This document shows, one piece after another, positions 22,693 through 60,430 of a stretch of DNA of 64,000 nucleotides. Positions within the stretch are counted from its first letter, which is position 1, and every line of letters begins with the position of its first letter. A program made the position numbers and the translations under genes. Source of the stretch: Rickettsiales bacterium (GTDB lineage Bacteria; Pseudomonadota; Alphaproteobacteria; Rickettsiales; UBA1997); assembly GCA_047627215.1 (NCBI GenBank), contig JBLHTM010000001.1:2663-66662 (forward strand), read 5' to 3'. The notes beneath the pieces were generated by a model that was given only the letters and a program-made list of their open reading frames with translations, did no database searches and was not told where the DNA came from.

Positions 22693-22730
22693 GAAATGGG
22701 TGGATTCTACAACAATTCACCCATTTTTTT
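22693..22730 (+). terminator. probable queA terminator overlapping the 3' end of the convergent U32 gene
   Basis: 9-bp stem aaatgggtg / cacccattt with a 15-nt loop, followed by T7. Confidence 0.45.
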
Positions 22731-24311
22731 AGTCTTTAAAAGCTCCCTAGCTTTAGCATATTTATCATCATGCCAAAACATTAAGCATCCGTTACAACCT
22801 TTTCCACAACATCCTTCCATTCCAACCCTTGGGGTTTTTGGAGAAATTTCTTTAATTTTTTGATCTAAAGAGCTCAAATATTTATCTCTCTTATTTTTAT
22901 ATTTGTGATCATTATCCGCCCCACCTTCCATCCTATGAGCCTGATTGTGTAGTTCTAAGCGGTTCTTATCACTTTTTTCCATCGCCTTTTCTTTTCGAAT
23001 CAACGTTAGCTCTGGTAATAATTCTTTTAGTTTTTCACCATCTTCCAAATGAAACAATGTCGCAGGGATGCGGACTAGATCTCTCTGTCCAGAATGGACT
23101 GCTTGCGTTTTTTTATTACCAGATTCATTTTCCAATTCATATATTCTCAGAAGAATTGGGTCTCTCTTTTGTGGAGACAAGAATTCCAAAACATCACCAA
23201 CAACAATACGGTTTTTGATTTGTATCAACATGTCGTCACCATCCCATTTAACAACTCGGGCCGCATATTCATAAACTGCTGTTGATTTTGTACTGTCGTA
23301 ATCATGAGCCAAGTTGGTCAACCTACCATCATGAAAAGCAAGTGTGTATCCACGATTGGCAACAGCTTCTAATTCACCCATGTATTTCTCCGAATCCCAG
23401 TCTTTTGGATTTTCGTAATAATCATCAATCGCCATTCGATAAGCTCTAGCAACCGTTCCTGCATAATATTCAGTTTTGTTACGACCTTCAACTTTTAGTG
23501 AATCAACGCCAATTTCTAAATATTCATTTAATTTAGGCATTAAACATAAATCTTTGGAGTTCAGAATATAAGATCCCGCCATATCTTCTTCGAAAGGCAT
23601 TAATTCACCAGGACGAATTTCTTCTTCCAAAAAGAAATCGAAAAGATCTTTATTCTGATCAGTGATTTCAATTTCGTGCTCAGTGTTGTCTTTTAGCTTT
23701 ATTTTAACCTTGTATCCCCATCTGCAGCTGTGAGCACAAGAACCTTGGTTAGCACCACGTTCTGACATAAAATTTGAAAGTAAACAACGGCCAGAATAGG
23801 TCATGCACATTGATCCGTGAACAAAAGCTTCAAGTTTAATATCTGGGCATTTCTCGCGGATTTCTTTAAGCTCAGCAAAACTAACTTCACGAGCCAAAAC
23901 TACTAATTTTGCGCCTTGATCTTGCCAAAATTTTACTGATAACCATGAACAAACATTGGCTTGGGTTGAGACGTGTATTTCTAGATTTGGAGCGTGTTCT
24001 TTTACGAAATGAGCAACTCCTGGATCAGATATTATCAGACCATCTGGATTTACTTTTTTGACTGTTTCGATGTATTCAGGAAGTTTTTCGATATCTTTGT
24101 TATGAGAGAACAAATTCAAAGTTAGATAGACCTTTTTACCTTTAGAATGAGCATATTCAATTCCTTCAACCAAGTCTTCTAGGCTAAAAGATGATTTGGT
24201 GCGCAAAGACATATCTGGAGTTCCACAATAAACTGCATCAGCTCCATAAAGAATTGCAGTTTTTAAGCGATCAAGTGATCCTGCCGGTAAGAGAAGTTCT
24301 GATTTTTTCAT
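22707..24311 (-). CDS. U32-family (peptidase U32 / Fe-S hydroxylase-type) protein with an extra Cys-rich C-terminal module
   Basis: 534 aa. N-terminal ELLLPAGS...AILYGADAVY. Conserved Cys cluster HGSMCMTYSGRCLLS...GSCAHSCRW. C-terminal GCCGKGCNGCLMFWHDD. Confidence 0.8.
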   Translation of the reverse strand: MKKSELLLPAGSLDRLKTAILYGADAVYCGTPDMSLRTKSSFSLEDLVEGIEYAHSKGKKVYLTLNLFSHNKDIEKLPEYIETVKKVNPDGLIISDPGVAHFVKEHAPNLEIHVSTQANVCSWLSVKFWQDQGAKLVVLAREVSFAELKEIREKCPDIKLEAFVHGSMCMTYSGRCLLSNFMSERGANQGSCAHSCRWGYKVKIKLKDNTEHEIEITDQNKDLFDFFLEEEIRPGELMPFEEDMAGSYILNSKDLCLMPKLNEYLEIGVDSLKVEGRNKTEYYAGTVARAYRMAIDDYYENPKDWDSEKYMGELEAVANRGYTLAFHDGRLTNLAHDYDSTKSTAVYEYAARVVKWDGDDMLIQIKNRIVVGDVLEFLSPQKRDPILLRIYELENESGNKKTQAVHSGQRDLVRIPATLFHLEDGEKLKELLPELTLIRKEKAMEKSDKNRLELHNQAHRMEGGADNDHKYKNKRDKYLSSLDQKIKEISPKTPRVGMEGCCGKGCNGCLMFWHDDKYAKARELLKTKKMGELL

Positions 24312-24492
24312 GACAATATTTTATTTTTTAATTGGTACATTAGGAGTCTTCATCCCGGAGATAAATTTTGTTCATCACCTTCTCTATATTACAAAATAAT
24401 CATCAGGCTCCTCGTAAAATACAATAATTATTCCTGTTTAACGAGATGCCGGATATAAAACCTCTAGTCAGAAAAATCTGCTAAGAGTTTTT

Positions 24493-24654
24493 ATACCAAG
24501 TCCCAACTATAATTCTATATATGAACAAAGTATTTTGTGGTATAGATTATTGAAAAATTAAGACATATATCCTTTGATAAATGTCTTAATTTTTTGATGA
24601 TTTATGACGAAAAAGACAAAGTTCATATACGTAATTATAGTTGGAACTTGGTAT
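24493..24654. repeat. 162-bp imperfect palindromic element, copy 1 (MITE/RPE-like or structured RNA)
   Basis: Outer 34-nt arms (24493-24526 / 24621-24654) are complementary at 30 of 34 positions. A central perfect 14-bp hairpin (24553-24566 / 24581-24594) has a 14-nt loop. Termini ATACCAA...TTGGTAT. Homologous to 39614-39774. Confidence 0.7.
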
Positions 24655-24750
24655 TATATCCGGTATGAAGATATTTTTAACCTCTGGGCACAAAATACAC
24701 CAAAAGGCCGTATATCTATCATGAAGATATTTGTTACAATTCTTTATACT

Positions 24751-24811: not shown

Positions 24812-27040
24812 TTATTTACCAAAAAATCCTCTTTTTTTCTTAGGCTCTTCTGGCTTATCAGAATCATCCCTTACTCTACGATCATCTCTATCACCCCTTC
24901 CTTTTCTTTCTTCGCGTTCTTCAGGAGCTGGGAATTTATGAGATATATCTTCACCAGTTGTCTGATCAACTGATCTGAAGCTCAATTTAGGGCGACTTTT
25001 TTTGTCAAAACCAATAACTTTAACTTTAACGATTTCACCTTCATTGATAACATCTTCAACAAATTCAACACGATATTCAGCAAGTTCAGATATGTGAACA
25101 AATCCGTCTTTTCCTTCAGCGATATTGATAAATGCACCAGCGTCGATAACTTTAACAACAGGTCCTTCATAAATACTACCGACTTCTGGTTCAAAAGTGA
25201 TGCCGTTGATGATTGCAATTGCTTTTTTAGTTGCTTCAGGGTCGTTACTACTGATTTTAACAACACCATCATCGTTGATGTCGATAAGAACCCCGGTATC
25301 TTCACAGATTCCTTTGATAACTTTTCCTTTAGCGCCAATAACTTCTCTGATTTTTTTAACTGGAATGTTAAGAATTTCAACTTTTGGAATGTTATCATTC
25401 AAGGTTGTTCTAGCTTCGGACAAAGCTTCGGACATTTTGTCTAAAATGTGCAATCTTCCGTCTTTGGCTTGATTCAATGCACTTCCCATGATGGGGAAGT
25501 CAATACCATTTATTTTGATATCCATTTGCAAAGCAGTGATACCGTCTTTGGTTCCAGCAACTTTAAAATCCATATCACCTAAATGATCTTCGTCACCCAA
25601 GATGTCAGACAATACAACATAATCCTCTCCCTCCTTGATCAATCCCATGGCAATTCCAGAAACTGCTTTTGGCATAGGAACGCCAGCATCCATTAGTGAC
25701 AAAGAAGCCCCACAAACTGAAGCCATTGAAGATGAACCATTTGATTCAGTTATTTCAGAAACAACCCTACTAACATAACCGAACTCTTCTTGGCTTGGCA
25801 AGATTGGATTGATAGCTCTCCAAGCTAATTTACCATGACCAATTTCTCTTCTTCCTGGAGGGCCAAATCTGCCAACCTCACCAACTGAATATGGAGGGAA
25901 GTTATAGTGAAGCATAAAAGTTTCTTTAGTGTGAGCAGAATCGATACTGTCGATAGTTTGCTCGTCTCTAGAAGATCCTAGTGTAGTAACAACTAAAGCT
26001 TGAGTTTCTCCCCTAGTGAACAAAGCTGAACCATGAGCTCCTGGAAGGATCCCAACTTCAGCTTTAATTTCTCTAACTTCGTTAACTTTTCTACCGTCAA
26101 TTCTGGTTCCACTTTTAACAATATCACCACGGACGACGTTTTTTTCTAAGTTTTTGAAGATTGAAGCAAGCTTGTTTTCATCAACTCCTTTTTCTTCATC
26201 AATGAATTTTGCAATGATTTCAGATTTGATAGCATCAAGATCAGATGATCTTTCTTGCTTAACTTGTTTTTTATAAGCAGAAGTGATTCTTTCACCAAAC
26301 TCACCAGAAACAGTGGCAATCAAAGCGCTGTTATCTTCAGAAGTAACTTCGATTTTTGTTACGCCAGCTTCGGATTTGAATTCATTAATTGCATCGATAA
26401 CACCTTGCATTTTTTCGTGACCAAATTTAACCGCTCCAAGCATGACTTCTTCAGAAAGCTCTTTAGCTTCAGATTCAACCATAAGAACAGAAGATTTGGT
26501 TCCAGCAAGAATCAATTCCAATTTACTGTCTTTTAATTCAGCGTTGCTTGGGTTTAAAACATATTCACCGTTAACATATCCAACTCTTGCGCCAGCAATT
26601 GCTTCTGACAAAGGAGCTTCGGAAATTGAAAGTGCCGCAGAAGCGCCAATCAAAGCAACGATATCTGGATTGTTTTTAGGATCGTATGAAAGAACCGTAC
26701 AGATAAGGTTTATTTCATTGTGGAAATTAGAGGGGAACATTGGGCGAATAGGACGATCAATCAATCTTGAAGTCAAAGTAGCATTATCTGAAGGCTTAGC
26801 TTCTCTTTTGAAAAATCCACCTGGAATTTTTCCGGCTGCGTAATATTTTTCAACATAATGAACAGTAAGTGGCAAGAAGTTAGCTCCAACAAGTGGTTTT
26901 TTAGAAACGGTTACTGCGCAAAGAACAACGGTTTTTCCCATTGTAGCTAAAACAGAACTTGCTTGTCTGGCAATCTTACCAGTTTCCAAGGTAATGGTTT
27001 TATCACCAAATTGAATTTCTTTTTTAATCTCGTTAAACAT
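24812..27040 (-). CDS. pnp: polyribonucleotide nucleotidyltransferase (PNPase)
   Basis: 742 aa with two RNase PH domains plus KH and S1 domains (GRREIGHG, SDILGDEDHLGDMDFKVAG). Charged R/D/E/K-rich C-terminal tail. Confidence 0.97.
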   Translation of the reverse strand: MFNEIKKEIQFGDKTITLETGKIARQASSVLATMGKTVVLCAVTVSKKPLVGANFLPLTVHYVEKYYAAGKIPGGFFKREAKPSDNATLTSRLIDRPIRPMFPSNFHNEINLICTVLSYDPKNNPDIVALIGASAALSISEAPLSEAIAGARVGYVNGEYVLNPSNAELKDSKLELILAGTKSSVLMVESEAKELSEEVMLGAVKFGHEKMQGVIDAINEFKSEAGVTKIEVTSEDNSALIATVSGEFGERITSAYKKQVKQERSSDLDAIKSEIIAKFIDEEKGVDENKLASIFKNLEKNVVRGDIVKSGTRIDGRKVNEVREIKAEVGILPGAHGSALFTRGETQALVVTTLGSSRDEQTIDSIDSAHTKETFMLHYNFPPYSVGEVGRFGPPGRREIGHGKLAWRAINPILPSQEEFGYVSRVVSEITESNGSSSMASVCGASLSLMDAGVPMPKAVSGIAMGLIKEGEDYVVLSDILGDEDHLGDMDFKVAGTKDGITALQMDIKINGIDFPIMGSALNQAKDGRLHILDKMSEALSEARTTLNDNIPKVEILNIPVKKIREVIGAKGKVIKGICEDTGVLIDINDDGVVKISSNDPEATKKAIAIINGITFEPEVGSIYEGPVVKVIDAGAFINIAEGKDGFVHISELAEYRVEFVEDVINEGEIVKVKVIGFDKKSRPKLSFRSVDQTTGEDISHKFPAPEEREERKGRGDRDDRRVRDDSDKPEEPKKKRGFFGK

Positions 27041-38189: not shown

Positions 38190-39524
38190 TTACCATATTT
38201 TTTGAATTTCAAAGTTCTTATCTTGATTTTCAATCTCAATCTCACCCTTCCCCTTAACAGCTTTCCATTTTAGAGACAAAGATTCAATTCCATCGTCATT
38301 GAAATAAATGTGAGAAGACGAGACTGTTCCAGACATCAAATTCCAAGTTGGGTCAACATAGATCCAGCGATTATTATGGTGAATAAGATTCCAAGCATGA
38401 CCTTCGAAACCATCATATTCGCCATGAGCAACCCCAACAACAACTAGTGATGGAATTCCGGCGGTGCGAGCGAGAGAATTATAAAGCTTGGCATATTCAG
38501 TGCAAACACCCATTTTATTAATTATTATTTTTTCCAAATTTGGCAGTTTATTAATGTAGGACAAATCGTATTTTATGTAATTGTGAACATAAACTCCTAT
38601 TTTAGCGTAGAGAGGAAAGCCTTTTAAATCATCATCTTGGCTTATATCTTTTAGCATGGCAGATAATAAAAATTTATCTGAATCGCTAATTTGTAAATAA
38701 TCGGACGGATTTCTGTGAATATTTGAACGATTATCATTTCCGGTTTTGATTTGGGATGTAATTTGCAGGAAAATATTTTTATTTTCCAAATTACCAAACC
38801 CGAGGACACTTTTACCTTCGTTGGTTTTTATTTTGGTTGCCGGATTGGAGGTTATTTGATAGCCATATTTTTGCTGTCCACTATTTGAAAAATAATTAGG
38901 AATAGACATTTCTAGTGAATTAATTTTCCCAGTAGCGCGAATAGAGTTTTTAATTTTCACATTCCAAGAATTTCGAGAATTGGTCAATTTAACAATTTCC
39001 GAAATTCCTTTAGGCGGGACAATACCTTTATAAACAAACTTTTTATTAAATTCCTTAATATTTTTATTCAAAGTGGCTGAGGTCAAGGACCAAGGATAAT
39101 AAACTTCAACTTGTGCAAAAGCCCCACTAGTAAAAGAAGGAACACGTATTATTTCACTCCTTAAATATTGGTGAATTTTTCCATATTTTTCAATATATGC
39201 AAAATTAATTACCAATTCATCATTATTAGATTTTTTGCGCGGGAATGAGATTTTTAGGTGATTATTTTGAAAGGAATTTTTAGTTTTTTGATTGTCTATC
39301 AAGACTCCCTTGATCTTTATTTTCTGTCTTGGGTCAAAAGAAATTTCAAATCCATTGTGATATTGATTCTTGGCAAGGTCAGTGATTCTTGCTTTTATTC
39401 TCACATTGGATTCCTTGCCATTTTTAGTGAGAATTATTTTCTCATCCCAATTGGTGATTTGGATTTCAGCTTGCACTGAGAATGGAAATAAGATTAATAA
39501 AATGATTGATATTTTAAACATCAA
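38190..39524 (-). CDS. exported transglutaminase-like (Cys-His-Asp) protein
   Basis: 444 aa. Signal peptide MMFKISIILLILFPFSVQA. Core MGVCTEYAKLYNSLARTAGIP...GHAWNLIH...YVDPTW matches the transglutaminase-like catalytic triad spacing. Confidence 0.75.
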   Translation of the reverse strand: MMFKISIILLILFPFSVQAEIQITNWDEKIILTKNGKESNVRIKARITDLAKNQYHNGFEISFDPRQKIKIKGVLIDNQKTKNSFQNNHLKISFPRKKSNNDELVINFAYIEKYGKIHQYLRSEIIRVPSFTSGAFAQVEVYYPWSLTSATLNKNIKEFNKKFVYKGIVPPKGISEIVKLTNSRNSWNVKIKNSIRATGKINSLEMSIPNYFSNSGQQKYGYQITSNPATKIKTNEGKSVLGFGNLENKNIFLQITSQIKTGNDNRSNIHRNPSDYLQISDSDKFLLSAMLKDISQDDDLKGFPLYAKIGVYVHNYIKYDLSYINKLPNLEKIIINKMGVCTEYAKLYNSLARTAGIPSLVVVGVAHGEYDGFEGHAWNLIHHNNRWIYVDPTWNLMSGTVSSSHIYFNDDGIESLSLKWKAVKGKGEIEIENQDKNFEIQKIW

Positions 39525-39613
39525 GGAATGTAAATTTGATTAGATTGCACTTGATTAAAATATCACATTTTTTATTAAAATGAAACGAAAGGTTCAAAGA
39601 TAAAAAAACAATT

Positions 39614-39774
39614 ATACCAATTATCACAGTTAGATGTACATTTAGGCAAAATATTTTTGAGTATAAAATTGGGAAAAAAAATCTTCTGTATCATGGCATA
39701 TAGAAGATATTTCTTCCCAATTTTAGACCAAAAAGATGAAGCATAAATGTACAGATAACTGTGATGATTGGTAT
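39614..39774. repeat. 161-bp imperfect palindromic element, copy 2 (same family as 24493-24654)
   Basis: Outer 31-nt arms (39614-39644 / 39744-39774) are complementary at 28 of 31 positions. The inner stem (39669-39687 / 39702-39720) has a 14-nt loop. Same termini ATACCAA...TTGGTAT. It starts 6 nt after the autotransporter stop. Confidence 0.7.
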
Positions 39775-39780
39775 TATTCA

Positions 39781-42747
39781 CTAAAAACCATACCTAAAAT
39801 AAAGCGAACCTAGTTGTGATTTGTAGGTCGGCTTTTCTTCAACTTCATAATCTATCATCATCAAAATTCCATTTTTCTCATAAATATCTAAGCCAAAACC
39901 ATATTTTAGACTCTCTTTATCGATATTAGAATTTTTAATCCTGAAGCTATAATTTTGACCTTCAAATCTATTCATTGAAGATTGATCACTAGCGAGAAAA
40001 TCATATCCGTAACTGACACTGAATCTTGGCTTAATTTTCGTTGATAGGATTTCCAAATCATCATACCTCAAATCCACCCCAAACCTTCCTTCAAAAGAAT
40101 CATTTTTCTCGTTACTAACTTGCAAATTCAGGGTCCCTGACCCAGTTTCGCTGTAGGTTGAAATTTGATTCCTTGCCATTATTAGGCTGATTCTTGGAGT
40201 TAGGGAAAATCCATAATCAATATTGTTGGTCATTCCACCGTCAAATTTTACCATATAAGTTTCTCCTCCATAATCAGCTTTGGCAATCAGATTCATTTCC
40301 GGCATCGGTCTTATTGAACTGTATTTATTAACCGCAACACCAATAATTGCACTGATAAAATATGGCTTAAAATCATATCCTCCATAAAGATTGAACTGAA
40401 GGCTTTCAATGGCAGTTTCTTTTTTATTAGAACTATTTGATTCAACATTCGCCATAGAAAAACTTGATGAAACTCCGAGTCGTAAATTTTTGGCAATTTC
40501 CTGATCCACACCAACCGCCAAACCTTGAGAGGAATATTCATATCCCATCGAGTCTTCAACGTCATTTTGCGTTGCGGAAGATCCAAATCCTTGAATCCAT
40601 ATCGCCTGATCATCAAAAATTTCATCGTCAAAACTCAATTTATTTAAGCTGGATATGTTTTCTTTTTTTGAAAAATTAGAAAAGTTCTTGGGATTCTTCG
40701 AATTTGGGAAATCACCAAAGTTATTTTTCGATTCTCTTAATAATGAATTTTCCAATCTATTTGAGGTGATATTGATGGAAGATTTTGCCGAATTTAATGA
40801 GCTATTATTTAGATCTTGGTTATTTTGAGGAATTGTAGATTGCAGAGCTGAGGATCTTTGAGAATTGGCGGTTGATGTCCGGTCAATGAATTTTTGCAAA
40901 TTGCGAAGTTCGCCAATTGCGCCTGATCCGATCTTATCAATATTTTGGTATGATTGAGCCGAGAATTTGTTTTTTGTGAAAGTTTCAGCTCCTTTGCGAT
41001 CAACTACAAGGAATAATTCAGATCCATATTTTCTAGTATTGAAAGTGAGCAACCCTGATTGATTTGAAGTTGAATTATTAACATCAATATTGAAGCTGGA
41101 AACCTTATTTACTTCTCCAGAAGATCCAGAAATAATGGCTATTTCAGATCCATCGGATAAATATCCAGAATCAGAATCGTAAGAAATTTGCAGATTAATA
41201 TTTTCACCAACAGCCACATCTCCGGCAGATTTCAAGCTTCCAACATTGGAATTATTCAAAGCATTTATTCTTAAAATATCACCATCAGAAACTGAGAAAT
41301 TACCAGAAATTTCATGATTTGCGCTTCCAAAATCAATAATGGCCGATCCTCCAGAAGTTGATAAATTTCCGGTGATGATTTTTGCAGAATTACCTAAATC
41401 TAAAATTCCTATAATTGAAATATTTTGCGCAGAAATATCAGCATTTGCGGTCAATATATTTCCAGATGAAATATTTAGATTAGCAAGAGATTGATCTTTT
41501 CCAATTTCATAATTGCTGGTGTAATCATGATTAATGTTAAAAGTTCCTTTTCCGGCGCCACTTGCGCGAACAATTCCGTTAATTATTCCACCATTGTAAT
41601 TGAAAATCGCATTCGAATTGAGACGAATTAGCGAATTTGAATCAGCACCAATTGAACCGTTATTTTGAGTCAAAACTGGAGAAACTAATACTGAAGTTGA
41701 AGAGATTGAGCCTTCACCAATATTAATTATGTCGGCATTGAAGGAAATATCATTTTTGATAATTAGTGACGTTTCATTGGAGATCAAAATCTCTGCCAGT
41801 TTTTTATCTTTTCCAAAAGAATCTGCTGGGGAATAACTATTATTTGACCCAGAAAATTGTAAAGTTCCACTACCATTAATTGTACCATTAATATTACCAG
41901 AAACAGTAGAATTTATATTAATGTCTAATTTTGCACCTTCGAAAATATTTATATTATCAGACGTAATAGATTGATAATTGGATTTCAAGGTTCCATTTTT
42001 ACCCTCGCCAACATTAATTGTAGTGGCAATAATACTCTTACCTAATGTCACTGTCGAACCATTATTTACTTTTATTTCTGATAATTCATCTCCATCAATA
42101 TTCCTTATAATATCGAATTTTGTCGTGTCGCTACCAGAAAAAATAAGAGATCCTGAGCCTTCAACGGTTCCAACAATATCACCTCCGCCATAATTCAATG
42201 TGGATCCTGAATTAATCTTCAGAAAAAGCGTATCAATGTTTTTATTTGAGGTATTTAGAGTGGAATTATTAGAAATTTCAACCAAATTTAAAGTTGTTGT
42301 TTTGGTTCCAACACTAGCAAAAAGAGTGTTGTCATTTTTAAAATTAACCGCCCCAACCTCATCAGATTCTCCCCTAATACTTACCTCAATATTTCCCCCT
42401 TCAACTGACAAGGTTGCATTATTGGAAATTTTAACGGTACTAGAAATATCAACATTGCCATTTAGAATTGAATCAAAATCAATGGCAATTTTTCCTGCTC
42501 CAGAAACATTGCCATTTAAGGTTCCTCCATTAAATATTGTGGTTTGATCGGAATTTCCCATGATGATGTTGGCGTCCAAAACACCACCTGAATCTATTGT
42601 TAAAGTTGAATCTGAAGATTCGGAAGATAGGTCAATATCTGAATTTTCTACATTTGATATTATTCGATCAATTGCAAAAGAATTGGATATAAAAAATAGA
42701 AAAAACGAAAGTACAAAAAACGGTAATATTGTGGTAGTTTTTGACAT
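39781..42747 (-). CDS. autotransporter (type Va) outer-membrane protein
   Basis: 988 aa with a signal peptide. N/S/G/I-rich passenger with repeated G.G.L.F.G / N..G.I.G beta-helix-like units. C-terminal ~280-aa beta-barrel translocator (WIQGFGSSATQ... ending ...YFRYGF with terminal Phe). Confidence 0.85.
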   Translation of the reverse strand: MSKTTTILPFFVLSFFLFFISNSFAIDRIISNVENSDIDLSSESSDSTLTIDSGGVLDANIIMGNSDQTTIFNGGTLNGNVSGAGKIAIDFDSILNGNVDISSTVKISNNATLSVEGGNIEVSIRGESDEVGAVNFKNDNTLFASVGTKTTTLNLVEISNNSTLNTSNKNIDTLFLKINSGSTLNYGGGDIVGTVEGSGSLIFSGSDTTKFDIIRNIDGDELSEIKVNNGSTVTLGKSIIATTINVGEGKNGTLKSNYQSITSDNINIFEGAKLDININSTVSGNINGTINGSGTLQFSGSNNSYSPADSFGKDKKLAEILISNETSLIIKNDISFNADIINIGEGSISSTSVLVSPVLTQNNGSIGADSNSLIRLNSNAIFNYNGGIINGIVRASGAGKGTFNINHDYTSNYEIGKDQSLANLNISSGNILTANADISAQNISIIGILDLGNSAKIITGNLSTSGGSAIIDFGSANHEISGNFSVSDGDILRINALNNSNVGSLKSAGDVAVGENINLQISYDSDSGYLSDGSEIAIISGSSGEVNKVSSFNIDVNNSTSNQSGLLTFNTRKYGSELFLVVDRKGAETFTKNKFSAQSYQNIDKIGSGAIGELRNLQKFIDRTSTANSQRSSALQSTIPQNNQDLNNSSLNSAKSSINITSNRLENSLLRESKNNFGDFPNSKNPKNFSNFSKKENISSLNKLSFDDEIFDDQAIWIQGFGSSATQNDVEDSMGYEYSSQGLAVGVDQEIAKNLRLGVSSSFSMANVESNSSNKKETAIESLQFNLYGGYDFKPYFISAIIGVAVNKYSSIRPMPEMNLIAKADYGGETYMVKFDGGMTNNIDYGFSLTPRISLIMARNQISTYSETGSGTLNLQVSNEKNDSFEGRFGVDLRYDDLEILSTKIKPRFSVSYGYDFLASDQSSMNRFEGQNYSFRIKNSNIDKESLKYGFGLDIYEKNGILMMIDYEVEEKPTYKSQLGSLYFRYGF

Positions 42748-60300: not shown

Positions 60301-60391
60301 AAAAAAATGGCTTTGCCTCGCAGTTAATTTGGATTGTCGTGCATTAAGTTATTTGCAACAATACAAACCAAATTAACTGCGAGGCAAAGCC
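60301..60391 (-). terminator. sdhCDAB terminator: unusually long hairpin (24-bp perfect stem) followed by T7
   Basis: ggctttgcctcgcagttaatttgg (60309-60332) pairs perfectly with ccaaattaactgcgaggcaaagcc (60368-60391). The 35-nt loop is partly self-complementary. On the minus strand it is followed by TTTTTTT (60301-60307). Confidence 0.8.
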
Positions 60392-60430
60392 AAAAAGGAC
60401 AGTTATTTTGAAGTAAAAGCAGGATTTAGA

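Follow-up and report, generated by a model that had tools for sequence, protein, structure and literature searches.

The 3-bp TNA/TWA (TTA/TAA) target duplication is shared by Tourist-type MITEs, PIF-Harbinger transposons and the IS5 family, and staggered 3-bp cuts at TWA are made by DDE transposases of the IS5-family and PIF-Harbinger types. The ends of Correia and ERIC elements can create outward -10 boxes, and in transcripts the hairpin of these elements may serve as a processing site. The YPAL elements of Yersinia reportedly insert just downstream of stop codons, and their co-transcribed hairpins are said to alter or raise mRNA levels. In the account of De Gregorio et al. 2006 given in PMC2759123, YPAL (RU-2) is 167-168 bp long and has a TA duplication. 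General MITE features are described for Correia (NEMIS) and ERIC/IRU elements (PMC3184786, PMC10969869). Rickettsiales genomes contain RPEs, which are palindromic repeats of ~150 bp without a transposase of their own (PMC10969869). When bacterial MITEs were clustered by sequence, 97.4% were genus-specific and there were no mixed-phylum bacterial clusters (PMC11602168).

We found two copies of a palindromic element in the window, that is, the whole 64 kb stretch of DNA that was analysed. The element is set apart from RPEs by description: RPEs are noted for inserting in frame into protein-coding genes and encode conserved peptides, whereas copies of the present element are intergenic and have no conserved frame. 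Its family recurs across phyla when it is recognised by tips, duplication, length and fold, and shows a conservation pattern that is inverted compared to classical MITEs. We propose, with a probability of about 0.85, that the copy located after the autotransporter gene of this window is a MITE insertion, in which a member of this family was moved in trans.

The hairpin behind the autotransporter gene

The hairpin (copy 2) lies between two genes of the minus strand. The upstream gene (39781-42747, minus strand) encodes an autotransporter of 988 aa (PF03797, E 4e-42) and ends with a TAG stop codon at 39781-39783. The downstream, transglutaminase-like gene (PF01841, minus strand) corresponds to an ORF at 38190-39524. 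We read its start as the ATG at 39521 (38190-39521), and the public call is 443 aa, one residue below the ORF. The protein matches P0001, from a 'Rickettsiales bacterium' MAG, at 100% identity. A preliminary description of this DNA had placed a palindrome 6 nt after the autotransporter stop codon and 90 nt before the next gene, which is right for the element boundaries it adopted. The palindrome is present as a rod-like, near-perfect hairpin at window positions 39610-39778. In our repeat scan, its outer arms of 69 nt (39610-39678 and 39710-39778) match at 74% without gaps, and an inner pair of 37-nt arms (39655-39691 and 39698-39734) matches at 84%. With bulges permitted, 39612-39776 forms one rod over the full length. 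The RNA of copy 2 has a predicted MFE of -71.7 kcal/mol (z -12.2) for the minus strand and -76.7 kcal/mol (z -14.2) for the plus strand. None of 200 shuffles matched this stability, indicating a fold far beyond chance.

Based on the fold and the covariance model scores, the element proper is a non-coding, 159-nt rod hairpin (39615-39773) that begins with TACCAA and ends with TTGGTA. It is bracketed by a 3-bp target-site duplication, TTA, at 39612-39614 on the left and 39774-39776 on the right, and 4 nt separate the element and its duplication from the autotransporter stop codon. The left arm of the outer stem (39615-39646) has a subfamily-variable sequence, while its complementarity to the right arm (39742-39773) is constant in our alignment A3. 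A conserved mid-arm block, CTTCATCTTTTTGGTCTAAAATT (39719-39741, minus strand), marks the Rickettsiales-type subfamily. The paired columns of this block (41-47 and 50-57 of A3) are invariant or almost invariant, and an identical 23-mer is present in locus L005. Its partner block, CAAAATATTTTTGAGTATAAAATT (39647-39670, plus strand), pairs with 39719-39741 and leaves a small internal loop. The apical stem-loop (39671-39718) is paired and differs among subfamilies.

Copy 1 occupies 24491-24656 (to 24657 in one reading) and consists of TTA, a 160-nt element (24494-24653) and TTA. It sits between pnp (24812-27040, minus strand) and a U32 peptidase gene (22707-24311, minus strand). The termini and the TTA/TTA flanks are shared with copy 2, while the two copies are only 62.5% identical. 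The covariance model found exactly two copies in the 64 kb window, and the R1 scores are 82.1 bits for copy 2 and 70.6 bits for copy 1. A BLAST search of copy 2 against the window returned itself alone; copy 1 surfaced in the inverted-repeat scan.

We then investigated an ORF of 68 aa (39575-39781, minus strand) that arises from the element and lies almost wholly inside it. The preliminary description had attributed this ORF to the palindrome, in good agreement with our results: its frame is open in only four of 55 other copies, stops are present in all frames of other copies, and a Pfam search of the ORF gave no match. The ORF is spurious and should be dropped from the annotation.

It had also been suggested that the hairpin marks an insertion junction of an accessory block. 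We considered this as the edge of a horizontally acquired block comprising the autotransporter, transglutaminase and DUF748 genes. In line with this, the autotransporter and transglutaminase-like genes are not neighbours in relatives. However, gene order is scrambled generally in these relatives, and GC content and skew show no discontinuity at 39.6 kb. Moreover, a target duplication belongs to the element alone, and copy 1 resides at an unrelated housekeeping locus (pnp/U32). A block edge at this position is thus highly improbable, and what was inserted at 39.6 kb is the element itself, not an accessory block. Relatives at 71%, 58% and 44% identity showed no synteny, so orthologs did not provide an empty-site comparison.

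Target duplication, dispersed copies and candidate parents

Several features of copy 2 and its relatives are those of a MITE: a size below 500 bp with no conserved frame, terminal inverted repeats, a target-site duplication and dispersed copies. The terminal inverted repeats consist of the TACCAA/TTGGTA tips running into a paired outer stem of ~28 bp, with 4-6 nt conserved in sequence. Both window copies have TTA/TTA flanks. Among copies unbiased by the search pattern, the flanks are TTA/TTA, TAA/TAA or, in one case, TCA/TCA, and the next base is unconserved. A pattern-free structural scan revealed identical flanking triplets in 19 of 20 and 53 of 73 copies, with lengths of 159-161 nt. Roughly one in four metagenome copies has flanking triplets that differ, mostly as TAA/TTA mixes. 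Recombination between copies could have produced these mismatches, and chimeric A/B copies exist.

A degenerate search with the mid-arm block retrieved 106 metagenome stretches, including many near-identical 159-nt copies and many contigs that end within the element. Dozens of near-identical copies are found in a distantly related, freshwater Rickettsiales-like population, and copy 2 is 81% identical to subfamily A of the freshwater population. Candidate genomes with many near-identical copies are those of Colwellia sp. C1TZA3, Pseudoalteromonas sp. Z1A8, Photobacterium sp. GJ3 (chromosome 2, 16 places) and the Ga0214919/Ga0214921 population. The short-read contigs of the window organism also break inside the element. 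A complete copy in locus L163 has split an IS5-like transposase ORF, and excising this copy together with one TTA restores the frame seen in an uninterrupted homolog in L183. Where copies are in tandem, a single TTA is common to both. Copy 2 is present in all assemblies of the window organism, and its empty site (the joined flanks) had 0 matches in the metagenomes. Thus, we infer the mobility of copy 2 itself from its duplication and its family.

The fetched loci, ~1.7 Mb in all, yielded neither an autonomous parent nor a transposase gene bounded by TACC...GGTA ends, and longer elements with the same ends were only pairs of neighbouring short copies. Isolated element ends turned out to belong to copies that are truncated or into which other IS elements have inserted. 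The IS5-family gene beside a half copy is a lodger rather than the parent, with terminal repeats of its own that are unrelated, and a small Photobacterium plasmid with a copy carries no transposase. No protein family recurs beside the element. Because these searches yielded no parent transposase, the mobilising enzyme and its mechanism can only be inferred. The element encodes nothing and would therefore have to be moved in trans. The target of copy 2 would have been a TTA located four bases beyond the stop codon of the autotransporter gene, which was duplicated on insertion. Instead of a long terminal sequence, the enzyme probably reads the tips together with either the fold or the mid-arm blocks. 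The staggered 3-bp cut at TWA would be of the IS5-family/PIF-Harbinger kind.

Distribution of the family and conservation of its pairing

The family is defined by 4-6 terminal nucleotides, a 3-bp TWA duplication, a length of 159-161 nt and a continuous rod hairpin; the invariant mid-arm blocks are an extra feature of the subfamily of the window copies. Such elements occur in Gammaproteobacteria, Bacteroidota, Rickettsiales, Chlamydiota, Verrucomicrobiota and other phyla. A structural model (R2), whose training set included no sequence from the window or from Rickettsiales, gave 76.8 bits for copy 2 and 59.8 bits for copy 1 and found nothing else in the window, and its decoys (chance matches to the terminal pattern in viral contigs) scored at most 29.4 bits. 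These model scores indicate that the window copies are members of a cross-phylum TACC...GGTA/TWA family beyond their termini. On the other hand, members from other phyla have an interior with a CAAGGC...AACG core and an ATAGCY..GCTAY apex; an interior-only HMM built from other phyla did not detect the window copies, and an nhmmer profile of the CAAGGC...AACG core did not match them. A short block of the AAAAAGAnGAA type at the equivalent position was spotted by eye only. As no interior homology was detected, the cross-phylum link rests on termini, duplication, length and fold.

We also looked for the element outside these genomes. Carriage by viruses was rejected, as matches to the terminal pattern in viral contigs are mostly due to chance (a flat distribution of lengths, and paired sub-termini in three of 120), while five viral contigs are genuine by model score. 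E. coli genomes had no match for a Vibrio copy, and a plasmid collection had none for copy 2. A literature search by terminal sequence returned only irrelevant primer and barcode matches.

Double-sided changes are found in 16 of 23 outer-stem pairs across phyla and in 27 of 32 pairs of the outer helix in A3, where 94.7% of cells are paired. Within the subfamily, 94.0% of the cells of 65 pairs are paired, as compared to 75.5% in shuffles (0 of 500 reached the observed value) and 38-51% when slid, and 146 cells are double-sided against 41 expected. The ~28-bp outer stem and the apex vary freely in sequence, but always on both arms together, and even the tips co-vary (TACCAT/ATGGTA, TACCGT/ACGGTA and TAGCAT/ATGCTA).

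An outer stem that keeps its structure and not its sequence, tips with only 4-6 fixed and co-varying nucleotides, and a nearly fixed length would also be expected of a mobile element whose single-stranded hairpin is read by an HUH-type or other structure-specific enzyme, as with IS200/IS605 ends, REP/REPINs and their RAYTs, or integron attC sites, TWA being the target or the cleavage motif and not the product of a staggered cut. Furthermore, the two strands fold unequally well in 33 of 37 members with the CAAGGC...AACG core. This asymmetry counts against a MITE insertion, since a purely double-stranded transposase substrate needs none. However, the Rickettsiales-type subfamily of the window copies has no strand fold asymmetry, and its changes are from one Watson-Crick pair to another with few G-T pairs. 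With respect to the element core, the flanking triplet is found in either orientation, and it can be TCA/TCA, indicating that it behaves as a duplicated target and not as a cleavage site carried by the element. The ends are TACC...GGTA and lack the GTAG/CGTC tag of REP/REPIN elements, no RAYT gene is linked to them, and neither HUH nor RAYT genes recur near the elements. We consider single-strand mobilisation to be unlikely.

The conserved internal loops of the rod fold, as well as the strand asymmetry of the core-bearing members, might alternatively suggest a multi-copy gene for a small structured RNA, such as an sRNA, a 6S-like or Y-like rod, or a retron-like ncRNA. This is very improbable in our view. 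An Rfam search of the window and of the elements in 18 homolog loci assigned them to no family, and the generic-hairpin matches to miRNA precursors were far below threshold. No promoter or flank is conserved beyond the duplication, and no reverse transcriptase or other partner gene is found nearby. The copies are dispersed, at times in tandem, with target duplications, and one is inside an ORF. The only Rfam match in the 18 loci was an FMN riboswitch ~1.1 kb from the element in L014.

Effects on neighbouring genes and comparison with known elements

Only three of 82 copies are in long stop-free frames. Copies are often 0-20 nt 3' of a stop codon, and convergent pairs of flanking genes outnumber divergent pairs (25 versus 9). 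The preliminary description had interpreted copy 2 as an intercistronic terminator, attenuator or mRNA-stability element, and for this one copy an effect of the terminator or processing type on the autotransporter and transglutaminase-like transcripts is physically plausible. On the minus strand, in the sense of the mRNA, the hairpin is directly followed by GUUUUUUUAU (39610 to 39600). The U-rich tract UUGUUUUUUUAU (39600-39611, minus strand) directly 3' of the hairpin is flank DNA outside the element. A selected cis-regulatory hairpin that terminates, attenuates or stabilises the autotransporter transcript, thereby uncoupling the two downstream genes, would also be consistent with the very stable fold of copy 2, with the accumulation of family members just 3' of stop codons and between convergent genes, and with the reported insertion of the similar-sized YPAL elements of Yersinia after stop codons.

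However, the 3'-end enrichment may equally result from purifying selection against insertions into promoters and genes, together with an A/T-rich TWA target. No family-wide regulatory signature was found: the structured or motif strand has no bias to the sense of the flanking genes (7 versus 5 and 11 versus 7), and sense-strand U-tracts are not enriched 3' of the elements (mean 3.90 versus 3.95 T in 10 nt, with at least seven T after the element in 4 versus 8 of 87 cases). Compared with an intrinsic terminator, copy 2 does have a U7 tract, but its stem is ~75 bp long with an A/U-rich base, and the terminator scan made no call. A genuine terminator-like hairpin in the same window (60308-60392) is different, having G+C-richer arms and U-tracts on both sides. 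Thus, while a transposon insertion may act in this manner, a hairpin selected for such control appears quite doubtful.

A promoter-like site (39611-39640, minus strand) faces the transglutaminase-like gene. It comprises TGTACA, an 18-nt spacer and TG-n-TATAAT, with 10 of 12 consensus matches and an extended -10, and the -10 combines a single base of the flank with the duplication and the tip of the element. An outward promoter as a function of the family was rejected, as the elements have no orientation bias to downstream genes (20 versus 14, p 0.39), and the site is therefore probably incidental. Given that the family shows no sense bias, U-tract enrichment or promoter orientation, the U7 tract and the outward extended -10 of copy 2 appear to be local accidents that may still affect expression. 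If co-transcribed, copy 2 would add an RNA hairpin of ~75 bp and a U7 to the autotransporter mRNA, which could terminate or attenuate transcription or attract RNase III, while the tip and the duplication would create the -10 facing the downstream gene. We suggest that 39610-39778 be annotated as a mobile-element insertion, and that, if the autotransporter is uncoupled from the genes downstream of it, this be regarded as a side-effect open to testing and not as designed control. The covariance model provides a means to annotate a class of repeats that breaks assemblies and spawns false ORFs.

Among the known elements, YPAL/RU-2 is similar to the present family in its size, its stable hairpin over the whole length, its multiple copies and its intergenic location. 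It differs in its TA rather than TWA duplication and is known only from Yersinia and Erwinia, and the published RU-2 sequence is G+C-rich and has other termini without TACCAA. Correia (NEMIS) elements of Neisseria and ERIC/IRU of enterobacteria are likewise palindromic MITEs, of 100-160 bp, but they have a TA duplication, long conserved terminal repeats and a genus- or family-restricted distribution, whereas the present family conserves its termini less than any other part, save for 4-6 nt. Tourist-type MITEs, PIF-Harbinger and the IS5 family (IS1031, IS427 and ISL2 groups) share the 3-bp TNA/TWA duplication, but have G-rich conserved terminal repeats (GG.../GA...), and the ends of the IS5-family element from the same population, GGGACYGTCYCAAATC, are unrelated.

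Integron attC sites, IS200/IS605 ends and REPINs resemble the present family in that short fixed boxes are accompanied by a remainder conserved as pairing. Unlike the present family, they have no target duplication, have other boxes and are linked to enzymes (IntI, TnpA and RAYT), and attC lengths vary widely, while the present family is fixed at ~160 nt. A mobilising enzyme, if found, may make clear by what means hairpins of a set length are recognised by a transposase or recombinase. It is possible, although we would not favour it, that this enzyme reads the shape of the DNA (the folded rod, as a cruciform or a single-stranded hairpin, and the mid-arm block) rather than a terminal sequence, and that it cuts a set distance away, where the TACC tips adjoin a TWA. 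Such an enzyme would explain the length constancy of about ±1 nt, the turnover of the stem on both arms and the persistence across at least five phyla. If this is true, the family would represent structure-specified mobile DNA of a new class, similar in principle to attC sites or IS200/IS605 ends but with a target duplication.

A palindromic insertion between two genes

We found that a long imperfect palindrome (39610-39778) lies between the minus-strand genes of an autotransporter (39781-42747, PF03797) and a transglutaminase-like protein (38190-39524, PF01841), the latter being followed by a DUF748 gene. In an inverted-repeat scan, its 69-nt arms match at 74% without gaps and enclose an inner pair of 37 nt at 84%. 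The single-strand fold is a continuous rod, and its RNA minimum free energy was equalled by none of 200 shuffles for either the minus strand (-71.7 kcal/mol, z -12.2) or the plus strand (-76.7 kcal/mol, z -14.2). The palindrome and its neighbours are thus as the preliminary description had them, and ORF 39575-39781 is, as suspected there, a product of the palindrome and not a conserved protein: it matches no protein family, and almost no other copy of the element keeps its frame open. The hairpin is no artefact: it is a transposon insertion, a 159-nt element at 39615-39773 (copy 2). The element is also present in other assemblies of this organism, and a 'Rickettsiales bacterium' MAG encodes a protein 100% identical to the transglutaminase-like one. 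Two Logan short-read contigs of the organism (L003 and L004) begin inside copy 2, as is usual where a repeat breaks an assembly. Many other short-read contigs (among L129-L234) likewise start or end inside the element, indicating that the family fragments the assemblies of carrier genomes.

A covariance search of the 64 kb with filters off returned exactly two copies. Copy 1 (24491-24657; palindrome 24493-24654) consists of 160 nt between two TTA triplets and lies between pnp and a U32 peptidase gene. Both copies have common termini and length, yet they are only 62.5% identical; no other member of the subfamily diverges as far as copy 1, yet its self-complementarity is still full. In a freshwater relative (L133), an independent subfamily-B copy sits just upstream of the U32 homolog.

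Other palindromes were also observed. One with 27-nt arms, 81% complementary, and a 31-nt spacer (39494-39578) covers the start codon of the transglutaminase-like gene; in the mRNA-strand fold, the start region would be in the loop and the first codons in the 3' arm. It may serve as a translational control hairpin or be what is left of a different small element. A short palindrome at 1219-1281 (31-nt arms, 81%, 1-nt spacer) has no relation to the MITE family by the covariance model. A near-perfect inverted repeat at 60308-60392 (30-nt arms, 97%), between two co-directional minus-strand genes, is bordered by an A-run at one end and a T-run at the opposite end. It resembles a bidirectional intrinsic terminator, and illustrates the terminator-type hairpin of this genome for contrast with the MITE.

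A family common by design across phyla

We then scanned one genome per species for the terminal signature, TTATACCAA followed by 138-158 nt and TTGGTATWAT, which matched at least 120 loci. Among the matches listed, 87 of 126 measure 164-168 nt, the pattern permitting 157-177 nt, and 82 of 128 (both window copies counted) have complementary sub-termini. In a control scan of viral contigs, the same pattern gave flat lengths and paired sub-termini in only 3/120. The listed matches include isolates of Pseudoalteromonas, Colwellia, Vibrio, Psychromonas, Flavobacterium, Tenacibaculum, Labilibacter and Saccharicrinis, and MAGs of Saprospiraceae, Simkania, Verrucomicrobiota, Victivallaceae, Desulfococcaceae and Clostridia; MAG host labels are possibly imperfect, and the isolates alone secure two phyla. 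Genomes hold several copies each. Unannotated copies occur on secondary replicons of Vibrio, Photobacterium and Pseudoalteromonas (16 places in one record), and a Vibrio copy used as query found none in E. coli at BLAST sensitivity.

A covariance model (R2) was trained on 57 members, with the window and Rickettsiales sequences excluded. It scored copy 2 at 76.8 bits, copy 1 at 59.8 bits and nothing else in the window, while decoys (chance matches of the terminal pattern in viral contigs) reached at most 29.4 bits. By this model, the window elements belong to the cross-phylum family by design; by interior sequence, homology is undetected, as an interior profile from other phyla did not detect them. 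Rfam holds no corresponding family. Five viral-labelled (IMG/VR) contigs carry genuine members at 50-83 bits (L270 563-729; L236 2929-3095; L319 11527-11693; L242 2330-2496; L279 247-421), and phages or prophage regions may be vehicles for its transfer from one host to another.

Double-sided changes occur in 16/23 predicted outer-stem pairs across phyla. An alignment of 13 representatives of the window's subfamily gave a rod of 65 pairs, in which 94.0% of the cells are paired, against 75.5% in shuffles (reached by 0/500) and 38-51% with slid partners. Double-sided cells numbered 146 against 41 expected; 27 of the 32 outer-helix pairs co-vary, and the mid-arm blocks are all but invariant. Co-variation extends even to the terminal hexamer (TACCAA/TTGGTA, TACCAT/ATGGTA, TACCGT/ACGGTA, TAGCAT/ATGCTA). 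This pattern is the opposite of that of a classical MITE, whose terminal repeats are the conserved part. In the window's subfamily, one Watson-Crick pair replaces another, G-U pairs are few, and the strands fold equally well. Among members elsewhere with a CAAGGC...AACG core, it is the strand bearing this core that folds better in 33/37 (median -10.7 kcal/mol, p 4e-7).

The mid-arm block common to both window copies and the copy in a 71% relative was used as a metagenome query, and yielded 106 stretches, most from two related freshwater-type samples. One of these contigs, Ga0214921_10000233, also encodes a 44%-identical homolog of the window's downstream gene. The 47 full copies delimited, 41 of them exactly 159 nt long, form two main subfamilies and chimeras between them, with copy 2 at 81% identity to subfamily A; there are also other subfamilies, whose outer stems are wholly different. 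Internally deleted short forms of ~95-130 nt (L009 2311-2435; L020 5834-5932; L152; L199; L214) keep both tips and the duplication and lack the apex; persistence, if not mobility, can therefore do without it.

Target duplication and mobilisation

Model-found copies were used for the flanks, removing the selection bias of pattern-found ones. They read TTA|TACCAA...TTGGTA|TTA or TAA|...|TAA, once TCA|...|TCA; the next base varies, and the flanks show no conservation beyond the terminal signature. A pattern-free structural scan gave a length of 159-161 nt and identical flanking triplets, nearly always TTA or TAA, in 19/20 genome and 53/73 metagenome copies; both window copies are flanked by TTA/TTA. 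In many members the core is asymmetric, and it is found both ways round with respect to TTA, so the triplet is target DNA outside the element. Adjoining copies can have one triplet in common: copies of different subfamilies stand back to back with a single TTA or TAA between them (L040 4191-4516; L044 781-1106; L049 2362-2818), the junction (…TTGGTA-TTA-TACCAA…) being a 15-bp perfect palindrome. Thus, insertion seems to favour the triplet next to a copy already in place.

In the freshwater population, mobile elements are mutually inserted (L163 13555-13713; L183 3160-4470). The L163 copy lies complete within an IS5-like transposase ORF, and removing it with one TTA regains the frame (...GRV|RSRIGTSKLSK...), as in the uninterrupted homolog of L183. 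L163 provides direct evidence for insertion with duplication. A metagenome scan with joined flanks has no empty site for copy 2 on record; in relatives whose protein identity is 71%, 58% and 44%, gene order is unrelated, and there is therefore no orthologous empty site. Some MITE copies contain, nested within them, a second small palindromic element that is unrelated to the MITE and has ends GACCCCTGCAAATCAACCAATTTTGAGG... (L202 ~4350, minus strand; L233 ~3385; L135 ~6211).

Among the fetched loci, no protein family recurs next to the elements and no longer element has the same ends. An IS5-family element of the same population (DUF772 + DDE_Tnp_1) was rejected as the parent: it has its own, different ends, and was merely inserted into, or hit by, the MITE. 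In L183, half a MITE is joined to such an element of 1.3 kb, whose ends are GGGACYGTCYCAAATC. Since some IS5-family groups and PIF/Harbinger elements typically make a 3-bp TNA/TWA duplication, we favour, by analogy, a mobilising enzyme of the DDE type. This enzyme may read structure rather than terminal sequence, which would fit the inverted conservation pattern and the fixed length.

Relation to genes and to known elements

The family is intergenic, with only 3/82 members in long stop-free frames, and convergent gene pairs exceed divergent ones (25 vs 9 in the family; 13 vs 5 in the subfamily). Members are often 0-20 nt from a stop codon, and at several loci the stop codon is supplied by the duplicated TAA. 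Copy 2 had been proposed as a terminator or attenuator for its flanking genes. A U7 tract does follow the hairpin on the mRNA strand, and a promoter-like site (10/12, TGTACA-18-TGgTATAAT) points at the transglutaminase-like gene. Across the family, however, the structured or motif strand is not biased to the gene sense (7 vs 5; 11 vs 7), the outward extended -10 formed by tip and duplication is not biased to downstream genes (20 vs 14, p 0.39), and sense-strand U-tracts after the element are not enriched, all of which argues against a selected regulatory role. Regulation by copy 2 is thus plausible only as a side-effect; we regard its U7 tract and promoter-like site as accidents of this insertion that could still matter. 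The other suggestion, that the element marks an insertion junction of an accessory block, finds no support, because base composition shows no discontinuity there.

As a MITE, the element is an ordinary kind of thing. The family is unusual enough to deserve further study: its length is fixed, its duplication is TWA, its stems co-vary, its mid-arm blocks are conserved, and it is spread over several phyla. Among 1.4 million bacterial MITEs, 97.4% of clusters are genus-specific and no bacterial cluster mixes phyla by sequence (PMC11602168). That the family has been overlooked so far is consistent with this census, because design, not sequence, is common to its members. Correia, ERIC and RPE have the general MITE-hairpin theme in common with it but differ in duplication and termini, and RPEs also in not having its intergenic habit. 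The closest behavioural analogue is YPAL/RU-2 of Yersinia; in work from 2006 by De Gregorio, YPAL was reportedly seen to insert after stop codons and to affect mRNA level. PMC2759123 describes YPAL/RU-2 as a hairpin of 167-168 bp with a TA duplication; its termini differ from those of the present family.
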